NCBI GenBank assembly: GCA_043797125.1
Contig: JAZDPX010000013.1
Location: 73,180 to 137,179 of the forward strand
DNA from: Candidatus Omnitrophota bacterium
GTDB taxonomy: Bacteria; Omnitrophota; Gorgyraeia; JABMRG01; JAFGKX01
Length of the DNA stretch: 64,000 nucleotides
Reading direction: 5' to 3'
A model generated the notes under the pieces. The model saw nothing but the letters and a program-made list of their open reading frames with translations, ran no database searches and had not been told where the DNA came from. Both the position numbers and the translations under genes were made by a program. This document shows, piece after piece, positions 6,012 to 59,673 of the stretch (position 1 is the first letter of the stretch; the number at the start of each line of letters is the position of its first letter).

Positions 6012-9000
6012 TTAAGCTGCTTGCTGCAGTGCCACAGCGACTTTTTCATCAACTCTTCTTGGCAGAATCTCTTCCTTTTGATCCTTTACTTTATCGAACG
6101 TCTGTTTCCTGTACTCTTTTAAAAGCTCGAGAAATTCACTATCATCTGAAAATTTAAAAACTTTAATGTTATTACCTGAGCTGTTTCCGTTTGCATCGTT
6201 GATCTTTTTCTTGATTATCTTTATAGCATCATATCCAACCCTTACTATATCCTTTTCGCTAGCTAATCTTCTCCATTGATCCCAATATATATCAACGCCT
6301 GACCATGCTGCGCCAAGCATCATAATATCGTAAGTTACAAAACTTAGGCCTGTGCCTAATTCTTTAAAATGTTCAATATATTTATCTAAACTCAATGTAT
6401 CTGAAGGAGTAGCTATATTGATACCGACCTGCAACCCGTCCTGGCCAGGTATCAGATTCATTTCTTTCAGTATGTGTTTCCAGGCGATAACAACTGCCCC
6501 TGCCTGAGTGCCTTGCAAATCAGTAATTTGCAAGCCAAGACGCTTCTTCTGCTGAACGCCTAACTTATCGCGCGCTTCTTTAAAAGCCTGCAATTCTAAA
6601 CGATTTATCGGATAGAAATCACTTATCGCCTTAGCTGCGCCTTTTAAGCCATAATCGGGGTTAGGATTGACATCTTCAACTAAGAATGAACCCACAAGCA
6701 TATTGCTAAGTTCAGCGCAATTAAGGCTGGTTGTCGTATGGATAACAAACTCTTCTGTATTATTCTTTAAAGTATCTAGAATGTGCTGCTTAAATACTTG
6801 CCTGATAAACTCATCCGCTGTTTTGTCTTCCTGTTTGAGTAATGAAGATATGTCATTTTTAAGTTGCTTGATATATTTTTCTCTTACGGCATCCTGCTTG
6901 GGAATCTCGATGCTTTTGTTTTTTGCAATATTATTACAAATATTTTCAAGTGAAGTTTTTATGCTATCTTCCGGAAGACCTTTTATCTTTTGCATAAACC
7001 TGCCGAGTAGATCCTTTTTTTCTGATTCATCAGAAATTTTAGAAATCTTGTCTGCTTCATCATATAAATCACCGATGTGTTTATTAAATATCTCGGCAAA
7101 ATTTTTCTCAAAATTTTTCTCATCGCTGCCGTAGGCGTGTATAAGCAAAGGATGAAACTTAAATGCGCCATATGCATCATTTGCGTTTTCCCTGACAGCC
7201 AATTCTTCGTTTACAGCAGGCTCAATCTCCGGTATCGGCAGCGATCTAGGCTCTACCTTTTCTCTTTTCACTTTTAAATCGCCTTCGTAAATTTTGCCTG
7301 CCTTATAGTCTATTGTAACAAATTTACCGTTTAATTTTGTTTTTTCTTTTCCTATATTTTTCGATATTACTTTTACCCTTGTCGGAATAATACTTTTGCC
7401 TGCGTCAAATACATCCCAGTCCTCCAGGCTGACGCCTGCATCTATGATTATAGCTTTTGCATACTGCAGATCATCCCAATCAATGCCCTGCCTCTCAAGG
7501 CCTTCTGTTGTATTATCCCAGGCCTTATTCCATGCCTTTAAGATGCCACTGCGCGAGTTTTCGTCGAAGTTCATATTTTCTAATTTGTTCAAAAATTTAT
7601 CTGAAGTAATACTGTATAAATTGGCCCACACATAAACATTTTCAGAAACTTCTCTCACCAAGCCTTTCTCCAGCAGGATATTAAAATCTTTCTCCTTCAT
7701 CGTTTCTAGAAACTCTTGTTTTTGCATTAACACAAAATTTTTAGTTAAAACAACTATTTTATTATATACACTCATAGTGCTCTGCGCGCTTTCCGGGCTT
7801 TGCAATTTCATAAATTCTTTTTTCTTGGTAAGCTCATCGCCTTTAAGGCCTTTTAAACTGTTTGGCACCAAATCATCCTTATCATCTATAAAAATAATTT
7901 CACCCTTAATAACGCCTTCGTCCTGCCTAATTTCGTCACCATTTGATTTTAAATCAATTAATATGTTTCTGTCTTTGGAAGGCACGTCTATTTCTTTCAT
8001 TGCGGACATAGCATCATAACGCACCATTGATGCGAGCAGCCTTACCGACATGGTACTTACCCCAAAAGAATTAAGCAAGGCCATTACTTTGCCTGCTAAA
8101 TCATAACGGCGTATTTTAACCAGATTTGTCACTAACTCACCGCATAATTTTGTAATTATTTCATGGTTATCAGCCTCTCTTACCACAGCCTCAATAAGCT
8201 GCAATATAGTATAGGCACCCTCAAAAGCCAATGGCAGGTTCTTATTGCTTTTATCATAGTAATATCCGCTTTTAATTATTTCATCTATTGCTTGTATCGC
8301 TGCCGGGTCTTCTATTTTTAGCTTTGTTTTGTAGTCCTCCCTGCAGGCTTTTGAGGCTATATAAGTATAGTCATTGGTCCCGAATGAGAAAAAGACGGAT
8401 TCTACTCCGTATTTTTTATATTTTTCCTTAATTTGATTCAGCCTTTCGCTTATTTCAGAGATCTGCATAGCGCAACTCGGCACTTCAATCATAATGCCAA
8501 CTTCTCTTGGAAGCATACCTTTTTTACCTGCCGCCATTTGCAAAGCCCTATCCATAATTTCAAGCTCATTGGCAAATCTTATAAACACATAAAAAAAAGA
8601 CTGGTTGCGCGTATTTTTGTGAGCGTCTATAACAGCCTCTATTAAAAAAGAAAGTACTTTCTGGTCGTAATGTTCGAGCTTAATGCCTCGCAAGCCGACA
8701 AATGGATTTTTCCCGGGCTCTGCAAATATGTCGCCTATCAAGCCTCTTATTTTATCCATAGCAAAATCGTATGACCTGGCGCTTGCTTTCTGCATTGAGC
8801 CGCAGCAAAAACCCATCAGATTATAAAAATTATAGAAATTCTTCGAAAGATATTCCTGCGCCGATGCGCACCCCCCTTCTTTAATCTTTTCTTCTGTCTT
8901 TTTTATAACATATTCATTAGCTTTCATTTTTTCAATTATATTGTAGTCATAATTAAAATTTCTTTCCATTTCCCCGTAATAGTGCGCAATGAGATTTGCT

Positions 9001-12000
9001 CCCTGCTCGCCCGGCACTTGCTGAATAAATTGCCATAGCCTTCCTTGTTCAGAAGATAGTTTGGGTTTATTGTTGCCATTTTCTTCTTCTCTTATTGCAT
9101 CAAGAACCGCCAAAAGCTTTATGCCACAATCTTTTGCATATTGCTTACCAACTATATTTTTAAATTTTTGCAAAGCATCTTTTTTAAGATATCTGTAGAT
9201 TTCATCGTTAACTTTTTCTACAAAATCGGCAAACAACCTATTTTCTTTGTCTTTTTTCGATTTTTTAGACTTGCTAATGATTTCTTTGGCCGATATTCTT
9301 TTCGGAGGCTGCATTTTGCCAGCTTCTATTTGCTTGATAAGGTCATATCCATAAGCATCTGTTGGATGAATCCCTAATTTTTCTCCCAGGAACTCCGCTC
9401 GTTCTAAGGCATTGCCATCTGAATCAGCAAGTATGTGGGGCGCATTCCGCTGCACTGCTTCTTCAGCAGCTATTACAAGGCCTATGCCCGGCACTTCGAA
9501 GTCATCTTCATCCACCCATTTTACTTTTCTAAGTCCTGGTTTAATTACAACGCGCTTAACTCCGGGGATTGCATATGGTTTTAATCTCAATTTAGTAAAT
9601 TTTATAGGAATTTTGTTGTTTGGATCTATTTTAAATAAACGCCCGCTATTCGCATCTATGGTTAAACCATCGCCGGTTTTTAATGCCCTGTTATCAAGCA
9701 CAATCGGCCGTGTGCCGGTGATAGCCGGAATACACCTTTCTCTGCAGAATATCGCTGCGTGGCAAGTATCTCCTCCGTGGATTGTGACCACCGCATCAAC
9801 AAGGTTCATTATAGGATCATGGTGAGGGTCTGCTTCAGACAAATAAAGCGCTACAGGCAGTTTCTTCTCTGATTTTTCCGTGTAGTCATCGGGATTAAAT
9901 CCTAAATCTCTTATAAGTTTTCTTTCGCCATCGGTAAATTTACCTCGCTTTAATCGCTTTATTTCATCTGCATGCCAGGCAACGCTTTTTGTTGTATCAA
10001 ACGCAAGAATATAAGCATGAGTCGCGTTCTCTCCCTTTGTACCCGTAGCTATAGGCTTAATTCCATGCTTCTCAATAAAGTCTTCATCTGTTTCTGTCCG
10101 CTTAAGCACAAAATCCACTTTTGTATATTCTGCTGTATATGGCCTTGCTTGCACATTATATAAGCTGAGTTTAACCATATTTTCATTGCTGCTTATTATT
10201 TGCTCTTTTTCCTCGCCGCTAAGCTCTATAATCTCGTCATTTCTCATGCCCAAAACATTGCCTTCTTTATCCAACGCATATATACTAATCTTAGAGCCTC
10301 CTTCTGCCTTAGGATCAATCTCGATAGCAAATTCCACATCTCTTGCGTCTTTATAAAAATTGGCTATTTTTGACACCATTATGGCAACTTTCGCGGCTTC
10401 AGAATCTGATATTGAAAACGCATCTTTATGCGAATCTGTAGTCAATATATTGCAGGTAAAACTATTGTCAATTAACGACCTTATAAGATAGCTTAGATTC
10501 TTAAAGTTTCTCTCGTCAACACCTATCTTGTCTAAAATGGTTTTCTTGTCCGTATCTGGCACATCGGGTCTTTCGTTATGCCATACCCCCTTGACCATTT
10601 TGATAAAAGAATCTATATAATCATTTCCTTGTTTTTTTCTGTTGAAATATTTCTTCAAATTATTTTTGCCTTTACTGGACTTTTCTTTGGTCATTTTAAC
10701 TAAATCATATGTACCATCAACTATCTTTTTCAGGTTATCTTCATCGATGCCGCTCGCTCTGGAAGCGTCCTGTACATAAAATTTTGATTTTATATATTCC
10801 ACAACCCGACCTTTTATCTCTGCGGGATTGGTGTTGTTATCTACCCCGGATTTAAACATATCGGCAATTTTTTCCGCTTCCATCTGCAAGCGCACTTTTT
10901 TATCATTATCTGTTTCGCCTGATTCTGGTATCAAATAAGAAATACCCTGTAAATCTTTTGCTAAGATACCTTTAATCTGCTTCTGCACTTCATCGTAGCT
11001 TATAGCGTCTTTAACCATCGAAGCTATGTTGCGAATTTTGGTTTCGTCAAGGCCTTCCTTTTGTCTTAAAAATTCAAAGGCATATTCTACATCCACCATT
11101 TGTATAAATTTATCTCCTTTTTCGGACTGAACGGTAAACCAGTTATCCCCATCCAGCGTAACCATGACAAATTTATCGCCTCTTACTTTACCGCCAACAA
11201 CATTCTCTCCATACCCATGGCTTATCTCAAAGCTTACAACATTTGCCTTTGTGCTGATGATTTCGCCTTTTTCATTACGATTAACAAAAGTATCATCATT
11301 CTCATACCAGGCCTTATATAAAGCCTGGGAAACGCCGGCGAATTTGGTAGCTGGATTCACTGTAAATGCCACTCCCGCTAAACAACTTTCTACCATGCGC
11401 ATAATGACTACGGACATTCCCACCAAATCAGGATGTACAAATTCTTTTGCAGTCTCCATTAATAATTCCAAACAATGGCTTATTTCAGCGTTCTTGGGTT
11501 CGTATTCCAATATTTCTATCATGGCCTTAATTAAATTTACCGAACCTGGGTTTTGATATTTGGTAAGCGTATCTGCTATTTTTCCAAGTTGTGAATTTTT
11601 ACTAGAATATTCACGAAGTTTCTCCATTAAATTATGATATACCCTTTGCGGTTCTGTTTCTCCAAAGCCCATAGTAGCGGCAAAAATTTGGAATATGTCT
11701 CCATCCCTATAGCTTATGGCTCTGTCTGTAAATAAACTGGCACAGCAAGCCTTCCATTTATCAAGTACGTTCTTAATGCCCCTGACATTAAGATAGGTAT
11801 CTGCCTGTCCGGCCTGAGAGCCGCTTGTAACAGGGAACCAGGATTGTATTTTGCTGTCCTCGCCTCTTATGCCTGAGCTTCTTTCCGCGACAGCGACAGG
11901 AGTTTTTTTGCCGGATAAATGCGCCAGAATATTCAGGTGTCTATACATCCTGATAATCTCTTCTTCTACCTCTTCGGGGATTTTTGCGTTCATTATGGCG

Positions 12001-13799
12001 TGGCGTATTCTATCTCCTATTACATTTCTTATCTGGTCGTCTGTAGCGTCCAAAGTAGCTAATTCTTCTATGGCCTTTCTCGCTTCCTCATTAGCTTTTA
12101 CTAATGCAAAATATGCTGTTGAGGTAGCATTAACACCCCAGGGGGTAGGCGCAACGCTTTCGGTCAGCGAAAGGCTTAAGCCCTTTCCTCCGGATAATTC
12201 AAACCCGCCTGATTTCAGGAATTCCTTATATCCTTCTTTGAGGTGTTTAAGTTTGTTTTCAAGTCGGTTTTTATAAACTAACGAATCAGGGTTTTTCTTT
12301 AATTCAGATTCAATTTTACTTATATCATTTCTATATTTCTCATCTTCTTTTTCAAATAATTCTTGATGCTGCCTCTGCTCTTTAAAAGTCAGGCAATAGC
12401 GTTTCCAGGCCGGTATTTTAGCGCGTTTTAAAAAATATACATAATCATCAAGAACAAGGTCTATCGCTCCTTTTCTTTCTTTTCTTATTTCTTCTGCGTT
12501 TTCCGCAATTGCCTCAAGCGTTATTCCGCCCAGCTCCTCCGCTAACTTAACTATGCTAGTTTTCCCGGGTTCTATTCTAACATCATTATTGCTATCTTTT
12601 TTGACAATGGCTATGGGCTGTGCATTAAAGTAGAGAACATAATATTTCTCATCGGGCTTAACCTCTTCTTTAAAATATTTCCCTAACCGCCCTTTAATAT
12701 CCTTGCTATCCTTTAAGTCTATAAGCTTTTCCATATAGCTGAATGGCAATTCTTCCTTAGAATCTTTTAACTTATAAGTGTCTGTGCCTAAAACCTGCTC
12801 TAGTACCTCTTCTTTCCTGATTGCGTCAACGGATAGGGGCTTATATTGAGACAATAAAGGGGCTCGTTCAATACGCTCTTCTCTTGACAGCGTTATTTTT
12901 TGCTCTTTTTCAAGCTTGAATACATTACAAATTGTTTCTTTAAGCTCACCAATTGCTATAATAAGAGAAACGGATTGAAAGGCTTCACCTTGCTCACTAG
13001 CTATATCCTTGGCATGCTCTATACAGGACAAAGCTTCTTCCATGTTCCCTGTTATATACAGCAGATATGCGATATTCATTTCTGATATGGCTTTTCTGTT
13101 AACGCCGTAAGCCTCGTTCCATCCGACCAGCAGGGTGTTTAAAATAGACTTTTCCCTTTGGGATAATTTTCCAAATACTTTCTCAAGCCCGATAGGAAAA
13201 CCCGTTATTTTTAATTGTATTGATATTTTTTCAAATTCTTCTGTTATGATAGGAACGGGATGCAAGATAAGCGGTATTTCTGTTATTAGTAATGTCCTGT
13301 CTCCTTTTCTTAATAACTCTTCTGCAAACTTATCCATAAGGTTGCATATATGCTGCTCGTAGTTAAGGCGCGTTGTTTCAGAAGTAATATTCTGCGCTAA
13401 CTGCATAGCCTTATGCACACAAGCTAAAGCTAATCCTAACTCCTCTGCTTCATATAAAATTTTTGCAATCCCTAAGCATATTTTAGTTTTTTTCTTATCT
13501 TGCGTGCTGGGTTTTTGCCATAATAGCAAATGCGCAGTTAGTTTTGAGGCTGCTGTTTCACTTAATTTCCCAACTACCTCCAGTAGGTCAACGGGGAATT
13601 CTGCTTGTTCTAGTATTCGCTTTGTAGCCTTATCGAGCTCATCACGGAGACTGTTATCTGTCTTAGCTGTAGAAACACCGCGCAGGGCATTATTTTTTGC
13701 GGTTTGATTTGCTGCAGGCAGGTAATGAAGATTTGCGCTTTGGCAGGTAAAAATAATAGTAAATAATAGTGTTATTGTTTTTTTGTAAATACGAGCCAT
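6012..13799 (-). CDS. Giant 2595-aa multidomain protein. An N-terminal signal/anchor plus TPR-like helical region is followed by a complete PEP-synthase/PPDK-type catalytic core: PPDK_N ATP-grasp nucleotide domain, phosphohistidine swivel domain and PEP-utilizing TIM barrel. The core domains are separated by very large insertions, and there is a C-terminal extension of about 600 aa.
   Basis: Uninterrupted 7.8-kb ORF.
- PPDK_N motifs (about nt 11300-12210): SGGKGLSLSLTES...WGVNATSTAYFALV, VAVAERSSGIRGED...SGSQAGQADTYLNVRG, SVVIMRMVESCLAGVAFTVNPATK, VVSFEISHGYGENVVGG.
- Phosphohistidine motif TIHGGDTCHAAIFCRERCIPAITGT at about nt 9745-9800.
- TIM-barrel motifs IMIEVPSCAMQISE and FFSFGTNDYTYIA at about nt 8380-8520.
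- N-terminus MARIYKKTITLLFTIIFTCQSA is signal/anchor-like. Confidence 0.75.
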   Translation of the reverse strand: MARIYKKTITLLFTIIFTCQSANLHYLPAANQTAKNNALRGVSTAKTDNSLRDELDKATKRILEQAEFPVDLLEVVGKLSETAASKLTAHLLLWQKPSTQDKKKTKICLGIAKILYEAEELGLALACVHKAMQLAQNITSETTRLNYEQHICNLMDKFAEELLRKGDRTLLITEIPLILHPVPIITEEFEKISIQLKITGFPIGLEKVFGKLSQREKSILNTLLVGWNEAYGVNRKAISEMNIAYLLYITGNMEEALSCIEHAKDIASEQGEAFQSVSLIIAIGELKETICNVFKLEKEQKITLSREERIERAPLLSQYKPLSVDAIRKEEVLEQVLGTDTYKLKDSKEELPFSYMEKLIDLKDSKDIKGRLGKYFKEEVKPDEKYYVLYFNAQPIAIVKKDSNNDVRIEPGKTSIVKLAEELGGITLEAIAENAEEIRKERKGAIDLVLDDYVYFLKRAKIPAWKRYCLTFKEQRQHQELFEKEDEKYRNDISKIESELKKNPDSLVYKNRLENKLKHLKEGYKEFLKSGGFELSGGKGLSLSLTESVAPTPWGVNATSTAYFALVKANEEARKAIEELATLDATDDQIRNVIGDRIRHAIMNAKIPEEVEEEIIRMYRHLNILAHLSGKKTPVAVAERSSGIRGEDSKIQSWFPVTSGSQAGQADTYLNVRGIKNVLDKWKACCASLFTDRAISYRDGDIFQIFAATMGFGETEPQRVYHNLMEKLREYSSKNSQLGKIADTLTKYQNPGSVNLIKAMIEILEYEPKNAEISHCLELLMETAKEFVHPDLVGMSVVIMRMVESCLAGVAFTVNPATKFAGVSQALYKAWYENDDTFVNRNEKGEIISTKANVVSFEISHGYGENVVGGKVRGDKFVMVTLDGDNWFTVQSEKGDKFIQMVDVEYAFEFLRQKEGLDETKIRNIASMVKDAISYDEVQKQIKGILAKDLQGISYLIPESGETDNDKKVRLQMEAEKIADMFKSGVDNNTNPAEIKGRVVEYIKSKFYVQDASRASGIDEDNLKKIVDGTYDLVKMTKEKSSKGKNNLKKYFNRKKQGNDYIDSFIKMVKGVWHNERPDVPDTDKKTILDKIGVDERNFKNLSYLIRSLIDNSFTCNILTTDSHKDAFSISDSEAAKVAIMVSKIANFYKDARDVEFAIEIDPKAEGGSKISIYALDKEGNVLGMRNDEIIELSGEEKEQIISSNENMVKLSLYNVQARPYTAEYTKVDFVLKRTETDEDFIEKHGIKPIATGTKGENATHAYILAFDTTKSVAWHADEIKRLKRGKFTDGERKLIRDLGFNPDDYTEKSEKKLPVALYLSEADPHHDPIMNLVDAVVTIHGGDTCHAAIFCRERCIPAITGTRPIVLDNRALKTGDGLTIDANSGRLFKIDPNNKIPIKFTKLRLKPYAIPGVKRVVIKPGLRKVKWVDEDDFEVPGIGLVIAAEEAVQRNAPHILADSDGNALERAEFLGEKLGIHPTDAYGYDLIKQIEAGKMQPPKRISAKEIISKSKKSKKDKENRLFADFVEKVNDEIYRYLKKDALQKFKNIVGKQYAKDCGIKLLAVLDAIREEENGNNKPKLSSEQGRLWQFIQQVPGEQGANLIAHYYGEMERNFNYDYNIIEKMKANEYVIKKTEEKIKEGGCASAQEYLSKNFYNFYNLMGFCCGSMQKASARSYDFAMDKIRGLIGDIFAEPGKNPFVGLRGIKLEHYDQKVLSFLIEAVIDAHKNTRNQSFFYVFIRFANELEIMDRALQMAAGKKGMLPREVGIMIEVPSCAMQISEISERLNQIKEKYKKYGVESVFFSFGTNDYTYIASKACREDYKTKLKIEDPAAIQAIDEIIKSGYYYDKSNKNLPLAFEGAYTILQLIEAVVREADNHEIITKLCGELVTNLVKIRRYDLAGKVMALLNSFGVSTMSVRLLASMVRYDAMSAMKEIDVPSKDRNILIDLKSNGDEIRQDEGVIKGEIIFIDDKDDLVPNSLKGLKGDELTKKKEFMKLQSPESAQSTMSVYNKIVVLTKNFVLMQKQEFLETMKEKDFNILLEKGLVREVSENVYVWANLYSITSDKFLNKLENMNFDENSRSGILKAWNKAWDNTTEGLERQGIDWDDLQYAKAIIIDAGVSLEDWDVFDAGKSIIPTRVKVISKNIGKEKTKLNGKFVTIDYKAGKIYEGDLKVKREKVEPRSLPIPEIEPAVNEELAVRENANDAYGAFKFHPLLIHAYGSDEKNFEKNFAEIFNKHIGDLYDEADKISKISDESEKKDLLGRFMQKIKGLPEDSIKTSLENICNNIAKNKSIEIPKQDAVREKYIKQLKNDISSLLKQEDKTADEFIRQVFKQHILDTLKNNTEEFVIHTTTSLNCAELSNMLVGSFLVEDVNPNPDYGLKGAAKAISDFYPINRLELQAFKEARDKLGVQQKKRLGLQITDLQGTQAGAVVIAWKHILKEMNLIPGQDGLQVGINIATPSDTLSLDKYIEHFKELGTGLSFVTYDIMMLGAAWSGVDIYWDQWRRLASEKDIVRVGYDAIKIIKKKINDANGNSSGNNIKVFKFSDDSEFLELLKEYRKQTFDKVKDQKEEILPRRVDEKVAVALQQAA

Positions 13800-56826: not shown

Positions 56827-56911
56827 GTAATTAAAAGCCCTTCCGACGTAGCGCAGGCTTAAGCCTGCGCTACGTCTAAGTCGAGATGCTTATAATGGCT
56901 GAGCTATTAAC
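56826..56911 (+). repeat. Palindromic MITE/REP-like element, full-length copy.
   Basis: tgtaattaaaagcccttccgacgtagcgcaggcTTAAgcctgcgctacgtctaagtcgagatgcttataatggctgagctattaac. Confidence 0.8.
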
Positions 56912-57016
56912 AATTACAGGGCAGTTTAGACACCCCTGCCCTGTCATTTTACTCCTTTTGAATCAGTAGATCCCTTTTAAATAATTATCGGGAAGACTTG
57001 AAGTAGAATCTCTTTT

Positions 57017-57184
57017 TTAGCGGCCTTCGTTCTTGCGCTTTGAAAAGCAATCCTTGCAATACACAGGACGATCCCCTCTAGGTTTGAAAGGTACGTCGCA
57101 TTCCTTATTGCAGTCTGAACAGGTTGCCTTGAACATTTCCCGTGGACCCCTGTCAAATCCACCATTACCCTTTTGATATCCCAT
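57017..57184 (-). CDS. Unannotated small CxxC-x17-CxxC zinc-ribbon protein, 55 aa, below the ORF-track size cutoff.
   Basis: Minus-strand ORF with RBS ggagga.
MGYQKGNGGFDRGPREMFKATCSDCNKECDVPFKPRGDRPVYCKDCFSKRKNEGR*.
The core is about 80% nucleotide-identical to the 3' part of 58899..59390. Confidence 0.65.
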   Translation of the reverse strand: MGYQKGNGGFDRGPREMFKATCSDCNKECDVPFKPRGDRPVYCKDCFSKRKNEGR

Positions 57185-57282
57185 GCTTCCTCCGTTTTAG
57201 ATTAGGCCTTTTTTGGTTCGCCTAACCTGTGTTATCCATACAATAGGTTATTATTATACATTCACTATTGCACCATGTCAAA

Positions 57283-58898: not shown

Positions 58899-59390
58899 TT
58901 ATTTTCTGCGTCGGGGGCTTGGCTGCCTTTTTTTATAAGGCCTTTTGCCTGCGCTATTTCTTTGCTTGGGGAAATGGCTCGCCGGCATAAAAGTTGTTTC
59001 TTGCGGTTTATTATTATGGTCTTCTTTAAACGGGTTTGCGCCTTTTCGTTTTGAAAAGCATTCCTTGCAATACACGGGGCGGTCCCCGCTGGGCTTAAAA
59101 GGAACTTCGCATTCTTTGTTACAGTCTGAACAAATAACCTTGGTAAAACTTCTGTCCCTAAAGCCGTCTTCTCTGGGCCTTCTATCATCATGACGAGGCC
59201 GGTCAAAACGCTGGAAAGGCTTTGGAAAGCGCTGGCCTTCGGACTTATTTTTAAAAGACTGGCTTGCCAATGCATCGATTTTGTTTTCAATGGATGCAAG
59301 CTGCTGCTGCATCTTGCTAATCAGGTCCATTATATCCGGCTCGCTTTGCGCCTGTGTTAAGGAACCTCTGTGCCTAAAATTTTTTTTCAT
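58899..59390 (-). CDS. CxxC-x17-CxxC zinc-ribbon protein, 163 aa: coiled-coil N-terminus, Arg/Asp-rich linker and basic C-terminal tail.
   Basis: CSDCNKECEVPFKPSGDRPVYCKECFSKRK with exactly 17 residues between the two CxxC pairs. C-terminus KRPYKKRQPSPRRRK. Confidence 0.7.
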   Translation of the reverse strand: MKKNFRHRGSLTQAQSEPDIMDLISKMQQQLASIENKIDALASQSFKNKSEGQRFPKPFQRFDRPRHDDRRPREDGFRDRSFTKVICSDCNKECEVPFKPSGDRPVYCKECFSKRKGANPFKEDHNNKPQETTFMPASHFPKQRNSAGKRPYKKRQPSPRRRK

Positions 59391-59400
59391 TTCACTCCTC

Positions 59401-59673
59401 CTAAATTTTACCCATAAACATTAGTATGCCGACAATAACAAATAACGCCGCGCCGCCGTATCTTATCATGTCGGGCCGTATATATTTGCTCAAGGTCGCG
59501 CCTATTAATACGGTGATCGCCGTTACTATAAGATAAGCTGAAACAGACCCTAACCACACAGTTAGAGGCTTGCCTGATTTAGCAGACAGGCTTATCCCAA
59601 TCAATTGCGTCTTATCTGCAAGCTCCGCGAAAAAAATCGCTGAAAATGTCGCAAAAAATATTTTCCAATCCAT
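59401..59673 (-). CDS. UPF0016 (GDT1/TMEM165/MneA) family half-size cation transporter.
   Basis: 90 aa, three TM segments. Family signature E-x-G-D-K-T appears as ELADKTQL. Confidence 0.6.
   Translation of the reverse strand: MDWKIFFATFSAIFFAELADKTQLIGISLSAKSGKPLTVWLGSVSAYLIVTAITVLIGATLSKYIRPDMIRYGGAALFVIVGILMFMGKI

Follow-up and report, generated by a model that had tools for sequence, protein, structure and literature searches.

Two minus-strand genes in a 64,000-nt stretch of a Candidatus Omnitrophota genome (contig JAZDPX010000013.1, positions 73,180 to 137,179; the whole stretch is referred to here as the window) encode closely similar segments in which two CxxC pairs enclose 17 residues. 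One of them is a frame of 55 amino acids (the short gene), which is missing from the list of open reading frames (ORFs) available to the initial annotation, and the other lies within a protein of 163 amino acids (the long gene). The locus raises the question whether the short frame is a gene at all, whether the resemblance of the two copies records a recent event, and what such a small protein may do in the cell. Our results are for the most part corrective: the gene exists but had been annotated before, and the similarity at the DNA level reflects strong constraint on the protein, not a recent event. What is added here is evidence from sequence comparison that the paralogy is ancient, and the identification of a recurrent module in which the zinc finger is combined with a helix/tail protein. 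Coordinates of the features are collected in Table 1.

The 55-residue gene and its reading frame

The 55-aa frame is a genuine gene under purifying selection. A protein search returned 342 homologues of the short protein (6.3 kDa, pI 9.1), mostly 53–58 aa in length and 70–85% identical, and all named sources among them are Omnitrophota. Conservation in relatives, on which the initial annotation had made the reality of this gene depend, is therefore found in hundreds of proteins of about 55 aa. Across 88 aligned orthologues C25, C43, C46, V31, P32, F33, P35, R39 and Y42 are invariant, and C22 is conserved in at least 90%. Comparison with orthologues of the same length gives roughly 5, 4 and 27 differences at first, second and third codon positions (pN ~0.1, pS ~0.65), and this excess at third positions indicates that selection acts on the 55-aa frame.

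The signals around the gene are equally clear. A sigma-70-type promoter matching the consensus at 12 of 12 positions lies upstream and was ranked best among ten promoter-like sites in the 3.3 kb scanned. Its position implies a 5′ untranslated region of about 60 nt, for which only a modest fold is predicted (z = −2.45). The ribosome-binding site (RBS) was rightly judged to be good, as its GGAGG core ends four nucleotides before the ATG. The sequence AAAGGAGG is present upstream of almost all short-gene orthologues with unchanged spacing, and many of these orthologues carry a strong −35/−10 pair of their own; the RBS and the promoters are all that the upstream regions have in common. About 80 nt past the stop codon a terminator-like hairpin is located. 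Having its own promoter and this hairpin, the gene looks monocistronic, and from these signals it is probably highly expressed.

An alternative is that the 62-aa ORF listed in another frame (56977–57165) is the actual gene, or that nothing is coded here. This second frame is indeed open in the window, most of the orthologues checked also keep it free of stops over more than 50 codons, and one public gene call has picked such a frame: in locus L088 a 92-aa product without any family hit (8516–8794) replaces the true 55-aa gene (8611–8778). However, the codon-position pattern described above follows the 55-aa frame, the RBS suits its ATG, and its product matches curated models at E ~1e-19, while no Pfam hit is recorded for products of the alternative frame. 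It is conservation of the nucleotides that keeps this frame open in most orthologues. We therefore regard it as next to impossible that the longer ORF is the gene, and the initial annotation was correct in calling it implausible. For the CxxC-x17-CxxC family at large this is an annotation trap, since gene callers sometimes report a longer spurious ORF over the true 55-aa gene.

The description of the short gene as unannotated holds for the ORF list mentioned above but not for GenBank, where MFH0731711.1 is the exact 55-aa protein, recorded as 'CxxC-x17-CxxC domain-containing protein [Candidatus Omnitrophota bacterium]'. This record and MFH0731715.1, which is the long copy and is also named after the family, share one contig of 142,993 bp. 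Their accessions are four apart, which is consistent with the three genes present between them (for a small membrane protein, a DUF167 protein and an AIR-synthase-related protein). The short gene is thus an already annotated member of a known family to which no function has been assigned.

Fold of the finger and age of the duplication

Both window proteins belong to the family described by TIGR04272 ('cxxc_cxxc_Mbark') and PF23477 (zf_Tbcl_2, 'probable treble clef zinc finger'). With the TIGR04272 hidden Markov model (HMM), the short protein scores 69.6 bits (residues 15–51) and the long protein 61.4 bits (residues 80–116), far above the curated cut-off of 36 bits and in each case over model positions 1–37. 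With PF23477 the scores are 69.7 and 60.6 bits (gathering threshold 27 bits), and again the full 37-position model is covered by both. These full matches bear out the proposed paralogy of the short gene to the finger of the 163-aa protein. The spacing of exactly 17 residues is also as claimed, being C22-x2-C25-x17-C43-x2-C46 in the short and C87-x2-C90-x17-C108-x2-C111 in the long protein. No other C-x2-C-x17-C-x2-C motif is encoded in any of the six frames of the window. Since the family is defined by sequence alone, membership leaves the role of the short protein unexplained. At E ≤ 0.1 neither PADLOC nor PHROGs models matched the two window proteins or a finger-less helix protein of the kind described below.

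The initial annotation assigned the domain to the zinc ribbons. In a zinc ribbon both ligand pairs sit on β-hairpin knuckles of a small β-sheet, whereas in a treble clef the first pair occupies such a knuckle and a helix carries the second pair at its N-terminus. For the short protein the AlphaFold2 model, built from an 88-sequence alignment, has strands at residues 18–21 and 28–31 and a helix at 44–53 (pLDDT of the domain 80–87). C22 and C25 are located in the turn of the β-hairpin, an extended segment follows, and the helix begins at C43/C46; the Gly-rich N-terminus is disordered. The arrangement in the long protein is the same (strands 83–86 and 93–96, helix 109–116). The predicted fold of both fingers is therefore a treble clef, in agreement with the name given to the domain by Pfam, and zinc-ribbon models of Pfam are hit below threshold only (zinc_ribbon_6, 16.9 and 20.9 bits against a cut-off of 27). 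The short protein has hardly any sequence beyond this single Cys4 finger.

Fold and profile searches against the Protein Data Bank (PDB) found no relative with a solved structure. The GATA-type (class IV) fingers and the C-terminal LIM fingers of eukaryotes share the ligand spacing C-x2-C-x17-C-x2-C and the treble-clef topology of our model, but their resemblance by profile and fold is weak and falls short of significance. No GATA model is among the Pfam hits at E ≤ 1, and GATA structures appear in Foldseek at E > 2 (E > 1 for GATA and LIM fingers together). LIM gives no hit in Pfam, and a single finger is present in the window protein. GATA fingers read a specific DNA motif with the help of a basic tail, whereas LIM domains bind proteins and do so with two fingers. 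An RNA polymerase subunit was likewise sought, and NCBIfam and Pfam give only the CxxC-x17-CxxC and treble-clef models above threshold. Some homologues (P0084 and P0090) are named 'DNA-directed RNA polymerase' in public records, a name for which no model gives support. The 90%-identity cluster of P0084, a 55-aa finger, also lists a RuBisCO large chain of 423 aa (P0247), which is an evident clustering artefact.

The two copies were said to be about 80% identical in DNA and hence products of a recent duplication or of gene conversion. The figure is fair, as the copies, which lie in one genome, agree at 74% of nucleotides in the 111-nt domain and at 78% in the 102-nt core described by the initial annotation, and 29 of the 37 residues are identical in the two fingers. 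The conclusion drawn from it does not survive the comparison of substitution rates. The domain (37 codons) differs at 29 nucleotides, 21 of them in third positions; with dN at 0.145, synonymous sites have gone into saturation (pS = 0.80). When both protein sequences were held fixed and codons were drawn at random from the codon usage of the window, an identity of 72.5 ± 3.2% was expected against the 78.4% observed. The observed value lies about 1.9 standard deviations above expectation and was reached in 4% of simulations, a small excess that, together with the identity itself, is what can be said in favour of a recent event. Nearly all of the DNA similarity is thus explained by conservation of the protein sequence.

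The same follows from comparison with other genomes, as both subfamilies are present in many Omnitrophota genomes. The short finger of the window has a mean identity of 83% to short fingers elsewhere and 71% to long ones, and for the long finger the values are 88% with long fingers elsewhere and 75% with short ones. Ahead of the first Cys, a stretch of eight residues reads R-E-M-H/F-K-A-T-C in members of the short family and R-S/T-F/Y-T-R/K-V-I-C in those of the long one. These signatures are subfamily-specific (83% against 31%, and 76% against 39%), and each window copy carries that of its own subfamily. On these comparisons the duplication is older than the divergence of these Omnitrophota lineages, and it is highly improbable that the copies arose recently or have been homogenized by gene conversion.

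The helix/tail family and a two-gene module

The long protein is strongly basic (pI 10.2) and has 681 homologues in Omnitrophota, mostly of 163–167 aa. Its gene starts 10 nt past the stop codon of the GDT1 gene, because of which it is probably co-transcribed with BipA and GDT1. A coiled-coil N-terminus and an Arg/Lys-rich tail had been proposed, and an N-terminal helix and a basic tail are borne out: AlphaFold2 predicts the amphipathic helix with confidence, and 13 of the 47 tail residues are Lys or Arg. The protein is predicted to be disordered outside this helix and the finger. In the family alignment K37, D39 and L41 of the helix are invariant, and the basic C-terminus is conserved across the family. 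Apart from the finger, the long family comprises a basic N-terminus, the helix LINKMQQQLVSLEKKIDTLISQ, an HFSKPFQRFDR motif, an Arg/Asp-rich linker and the basic C-terminus. No Pfam or NCBIfam model matches these parts.

A profile of the N-terminal module retrieved 359 proteins, and the finger is absent from about 100 of the best 120. These finger-less proteins are 110–150 aa in length, are recorded as 'hypothetical proteins' and come from Omnitrophota wherever the source is named. The long protein is therefore a helix/tail protein into which a finger has been inserted. By sequence, the helix/tail proteins, with their amphipathic helix, charged linker and basic tail, constitute a separate and undescribed Omnitrophota family.

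Profile scans of all fetched loci detected the helix module in 24, the window included, which represent about 17 distinct arrangements. A finger is encoded on the same strand in 24 of 24, whether as part of that ORF or by a separate gene close by. A stand-alone finger gene of about 55 aa was present near each of the seven distinct finger-less helix proteins, at a distance of no more than 320 nt in L023, L026, L028, L089/90 and L094 and of 1.2–1.3 kb in L017 and L091-93. The fused long protein is also often accompanied by an adjacent short gene (L001/2, L003, L060, L085/86 and L087/88). When the look-up was begun from the long or the helix protein, a short finger gene was found within 1.5 kb in five of five cases; in the window 1.7 kb separates the pair. 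The data point to a recurrent two-gene module made up of a helix/tail protein, which may or may not have a finger of its own, and a stand-alone finger protein. That the two parts are fused in some genomes and encoded by adjacent separate genes in others is a well-known mark of proteins that work together. In L094 (3505–3675) a frameshift after CSDCKK breaks the short finger gene adjoining a finger-less helix protein; the contig name suggests a long-read assembly, and this frameshift is probably a sequencing error, not a pseudogene.

The conserved pairing could also be read as antagonism, the short protein being a microprotein-type competitor that occupies the target of the finger and so tunes or blocks the long protein. 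The nearly identical finger cores, the conservation of the pair and the presence of a consensus promoter before the short gene while the long gene lies in an operon are compatible with such a role. However, finger-less helix/tail proteins pair with the short gene as well, a split form that fits cooperation better than competition. The short gene also occurs with no helix/tail gene nearby, and in archaea with no helix/tail hit. We thus consider competition quite unlikely and cooperation of the two proteins the better reading of the module.

The wider family and possible roles of the pair

The CxxC-x17-CxxC family extends far beyond the Omnitrophota. A HMMER scan (E ≤ 0.001) gave 6,694 representatives at 50% identity, and species-representative genomes yielded at least 595 stretches, from Omnitrophota, Patescibacteria, Chloroflexota, Desulforudis and many archaeal phyla. 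Searching phage records with tblastn returned three unannotated faecal contigs with 55–58% identity, an uninformative result. The top-scoring representatives have two to five tandem fingers joined by RGG/RD/SR-rich linkers; the few that are named come from Patescibacteria, Thermoplasmatota and Nitrosopumilaceae. In 116 of 146 diverse representatives the last finger is followed by a helix, QFExLNxKLDKILxxL, usually with a Lys/Ala-rich tail, and such tails in Patescibacteria and archaeal relatives resemble histone H1. Pfam revealed no other genuine co-occurring domain in these 146 proteins. One of them (P0339; 246 aa, two fingers) contains a C-terminal fragment of uS3 (Ribosomal_S3_C, E = 4.8e-26) and is most likely a chimera of assembly or gene calling. 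Tandem stand-alone finger genes were seen in one Omnitrophota and one Methanoperedens genome (L066, 597–1054, and L084, 100–598).

Functional data under the identifiers of the family come from one study of Methanosarcina mazei, the other papers found being on GATA fingers. Eight small CxxC-x17-CxxC proteins of M. mazei have been detected by mass spectrometry with high confidence, and purified A00184 and A01980 bind zinc as measured with ICP-MS (inductively coupled plasma mass spectrometry); a role in transcription was proposed by its authors by analogy to TFIIB only (PMC12704099). Like the short protein of the window, A00184 and A01980 are stand-alone small proteins, and proteins of comparable size, likewise stand-alone and 60–76% identical to it, are encoded by archaeal loci, those of Methanosarcinales among them. 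The M. mazei proteins differ in being archaeal, in having eight paralogues per genome and in having no reported helix/tail partner. The one-domain zinc-finger micro-proteins of Haloferax volcanii, C(P)XCG proteins such as HVO_2753 and HVO_0758, are also prokaryotic, shorter than 70 aa and with little beyond a Cys4 zinc site (PMC6562870, PMC10716476, PMC11241148). They carry other motifs, belong to other families and showed no homology to the window proteins in any search.

Zinc binding being the sole property measured in the family (PMC12704099), the short protein could be mainly a zinc store, buffer or chaperone. The strong expression signals of the short gene and the multiple copies in some genomes, such as the eight of M. 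mazei and the tandem genes mentioned above, would suit this role. However, one zinc per 55 residues makes a poor store, and the invariance of V31, P32, F33, P35, R39 and Y42, which are surface residues and not ligands, is not explained by it. Neither the link to the helix/tail protein nor the fusion to charged linkers is expected of a buffer, and we consider this explanation very unlikely.

We favour, at slightly less than even confidence, a mechanism in which an abundant, basic zinc finger binds nucleic acid and works with the helix/tail partner. The finger would fold around one zinc ion, and its conserved basic and aromatic surface (K19, K27, F33, K34, R39, Y42, F47 and K49-R50-K51) would face the nucleic acid, with RNA somewhat likelier than DNA as the ligand. 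The partner would oligomerise through its amphipathic helix and supply disordered basic segments, and the two together would act as a non-enzymatic chaperone or coating pair of nucleic acid. Binding of nucleic acid is suggested by the pI values of the two proteins, the conserved aromatic/basic surface, the RGG linkers and H1-like tails of the relatives, and the gene linkage. Taken as a whole, the account of a real finger gene that is an ancient paralogue and forms, in a two-gene module, one half of a putative nucleic-acid-binding pair is the best explanation we can offer, and we judge its chances to be about even.

Several observations weigh against this account. The ligand of the finger and the physical interplay of the two proteins are deduced from composition, architecture and gene linkage. 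Foldseek against the PDB returned nothing significant (best E = 1.8), its hits being generic GATA, LIM, RING and FusB-type fingers, and the sole resemblance to solved structures at the sequence level is that to the second finger of LIM domains, which bind proteins. At many loci the short gene is without a helix/tail gene within 6 kb, so that its product may also function by itself. A survey of the immediate neighbours in 80 species brought up no conserved partner other than the paralogue. This survey comprised 138 Pfam families, headed by GTPases (7/150) and EF-Tu-type GTPases (5/150). Genes related to RNA and the ribosome do occur nearby, namely those for BipA and a TrmA/RlmD-like methyltransferase in the window and those for ABC-F proteins, a DEAD-box helicase, RlmN and pairs of cold-shock-domain (CSD) proteins in related loci. 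By a rough estimate, the recurrence of such RNA, ribosome and cold-shock neighbours is not clearly above chance, and we place no weight on it. Finally, the multi-finger helix does align with the Omnitrophota helix by hhalign (probability 68%, E = 4.8e-5 over 21 columns), which is a hint in favour of the account, but the segments had been picked by a motif expression and the comparison was thereby biased towards a match.

Two further points on the neighbours may be recorded. An apparent cluster of 'ABC' neighbours proved to be a mixture of ABC-F proteins and ordinary transporters. Tandem CSD genes lie 2–3 kb downstream of the finger/helix module on two unrelated contigs (L003, 6134–6622, and L094, 6150–6447), which may be a coincidence.

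The LIM resemblance and the neighbours bring in one more alternative, in which the finger is a LIM-like protein adaptor that docks on the helix/tail protein, or on a translation or transcription factor, and regulates it. A profile match to the second LIM finger of CRP1 (E = 0.013), the tight linkage of the finger to the helix/tail protein up to fusion, the 'RNA polymerase' names of some homologues, and the fact that GTPases and ABC-F proteins are the commonest neighbours would all be in keeping with it. However, the LIM match is weak and not significant and LIM domains need two fingers, the polymerase names have no Pfam or NCBIfam backing, and the counts of GTPase and ABC-F neighbours are low. 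Moreover, the two proteins share a strongly basic character, and their relatives have RGG linkers and Lys-rich tails of the sort typical of nucleic-acid binders. An adaptor role is thus unlikely, and a nucleic-acid-binding pair remains the reading that we prefer.

The window also contains a perfect palindrome, GTAGCGCAGGCTTAAGCCTGCGCTAC, in eight copies, where none is expected by chance in 64 kb. Its variants keep the symmetry by paired changes (GCGGAGGC/GCCTCCGC and GGGCAGGC/GCCTGCCC). Four copies are part of a longer element of about 110 nt whose ends are inverted (GTAATGGTTCAGC ... GCTGAACTATTAC), of which a fifth copy, the one next to the short gene, has the right half only. The palindrome looks like a REP/MITE-like or terminator-like repeat, and the copy next to the short gene may serve as a second terminator or stabiliser. 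Rfam gave no match to the repeat, and over the full 64 kb neither Rfam (gathering thresholds) nor a tRNA scan produced a hit. A single ORF of 2,595 codons occupies positions 6012–13799 on the minus strand.

Table 1. Positions in the window of the short and long genes, their predicted domains and signals, and the palindromic repeat.
Feature	Position	Strand	Basis or remark
Short gene, 55-aa CxxC-x17-CxxC mini-protein	57017..57184	-	ATG start; ORF, family models, homologues
Finger domain of short protein, aa 15-51, Cys22/Cys25/Cys43/Cys46	57032..57142	-	HMM coordinates; AlphaFold2
RBS of short gene, GGAGGA	57188..57193	-	GGAGG core 57193-57189, ends 4 nt before ATG
Sigma-70-type promoter, TTGACA-17 nt-TATAAT	57253..57281	-	12/12; promoter scan
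Terminator-like hairpin, 9-bp stem ACAGGGCAG...CUGCCCUGU, then AAUUGUU	56912..56940	-	Terminator scan and RNA fold
Palindrome copy	56848..56873		Between short gene and next gene
Long gene, 163-aa protein	58899..59390	-	ORF, family hits, exact match; identical to MFH0731715.1
RBS of long gene, GGAGGAG	59395..59401	-	Overlaps stop codon of upstream GDT1 gene
Predicted amphipathic helix of long protein, aa 17-44, DIMDLISKMQQQLASIENKIDALASQ, core of helix module	59259..59342	-	AlphaFold2, pLDDT ~89
Finger domain of long protein, aa 80-116	59043..59153	-	HMM coordinates; AlphaFold2
Predicted disordered basic C-terminal tail of long protein, aa 117-163	58902..59042	-	pLDDT <50; 13 K+R, 3 D+E; ends RQPSPRRRK
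Palindrome cores, 26 nt each	1294, 2400, 14878, 20755, 34997, 47392, 55480, 56848		In short gaps between minus-strand genes

It is possible, although rather doubtful, that the finger and the helix/tail protein are two halves of a widespread and abundant nucleic-acid-binding system, which would be split or fused in Omnitrophota and take a multi-finger form in Patescibacteria and possibly in some archaea. If so, it could serve small-genome, uncultivated lineages as, for example, a chaperone of RNA, a factor associated with the ribosome or one that coats the nucleoid. With its members in Omnitrophota, Patescibacteria and many archaea, the CxxC-x17-CxxC family is of great size and is apparently strongly expressed, and zinc binding is its only known function. 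Its link to a helix/basic-tail family for which no model exists gives experimenters a concrete pair of proteins to work with.

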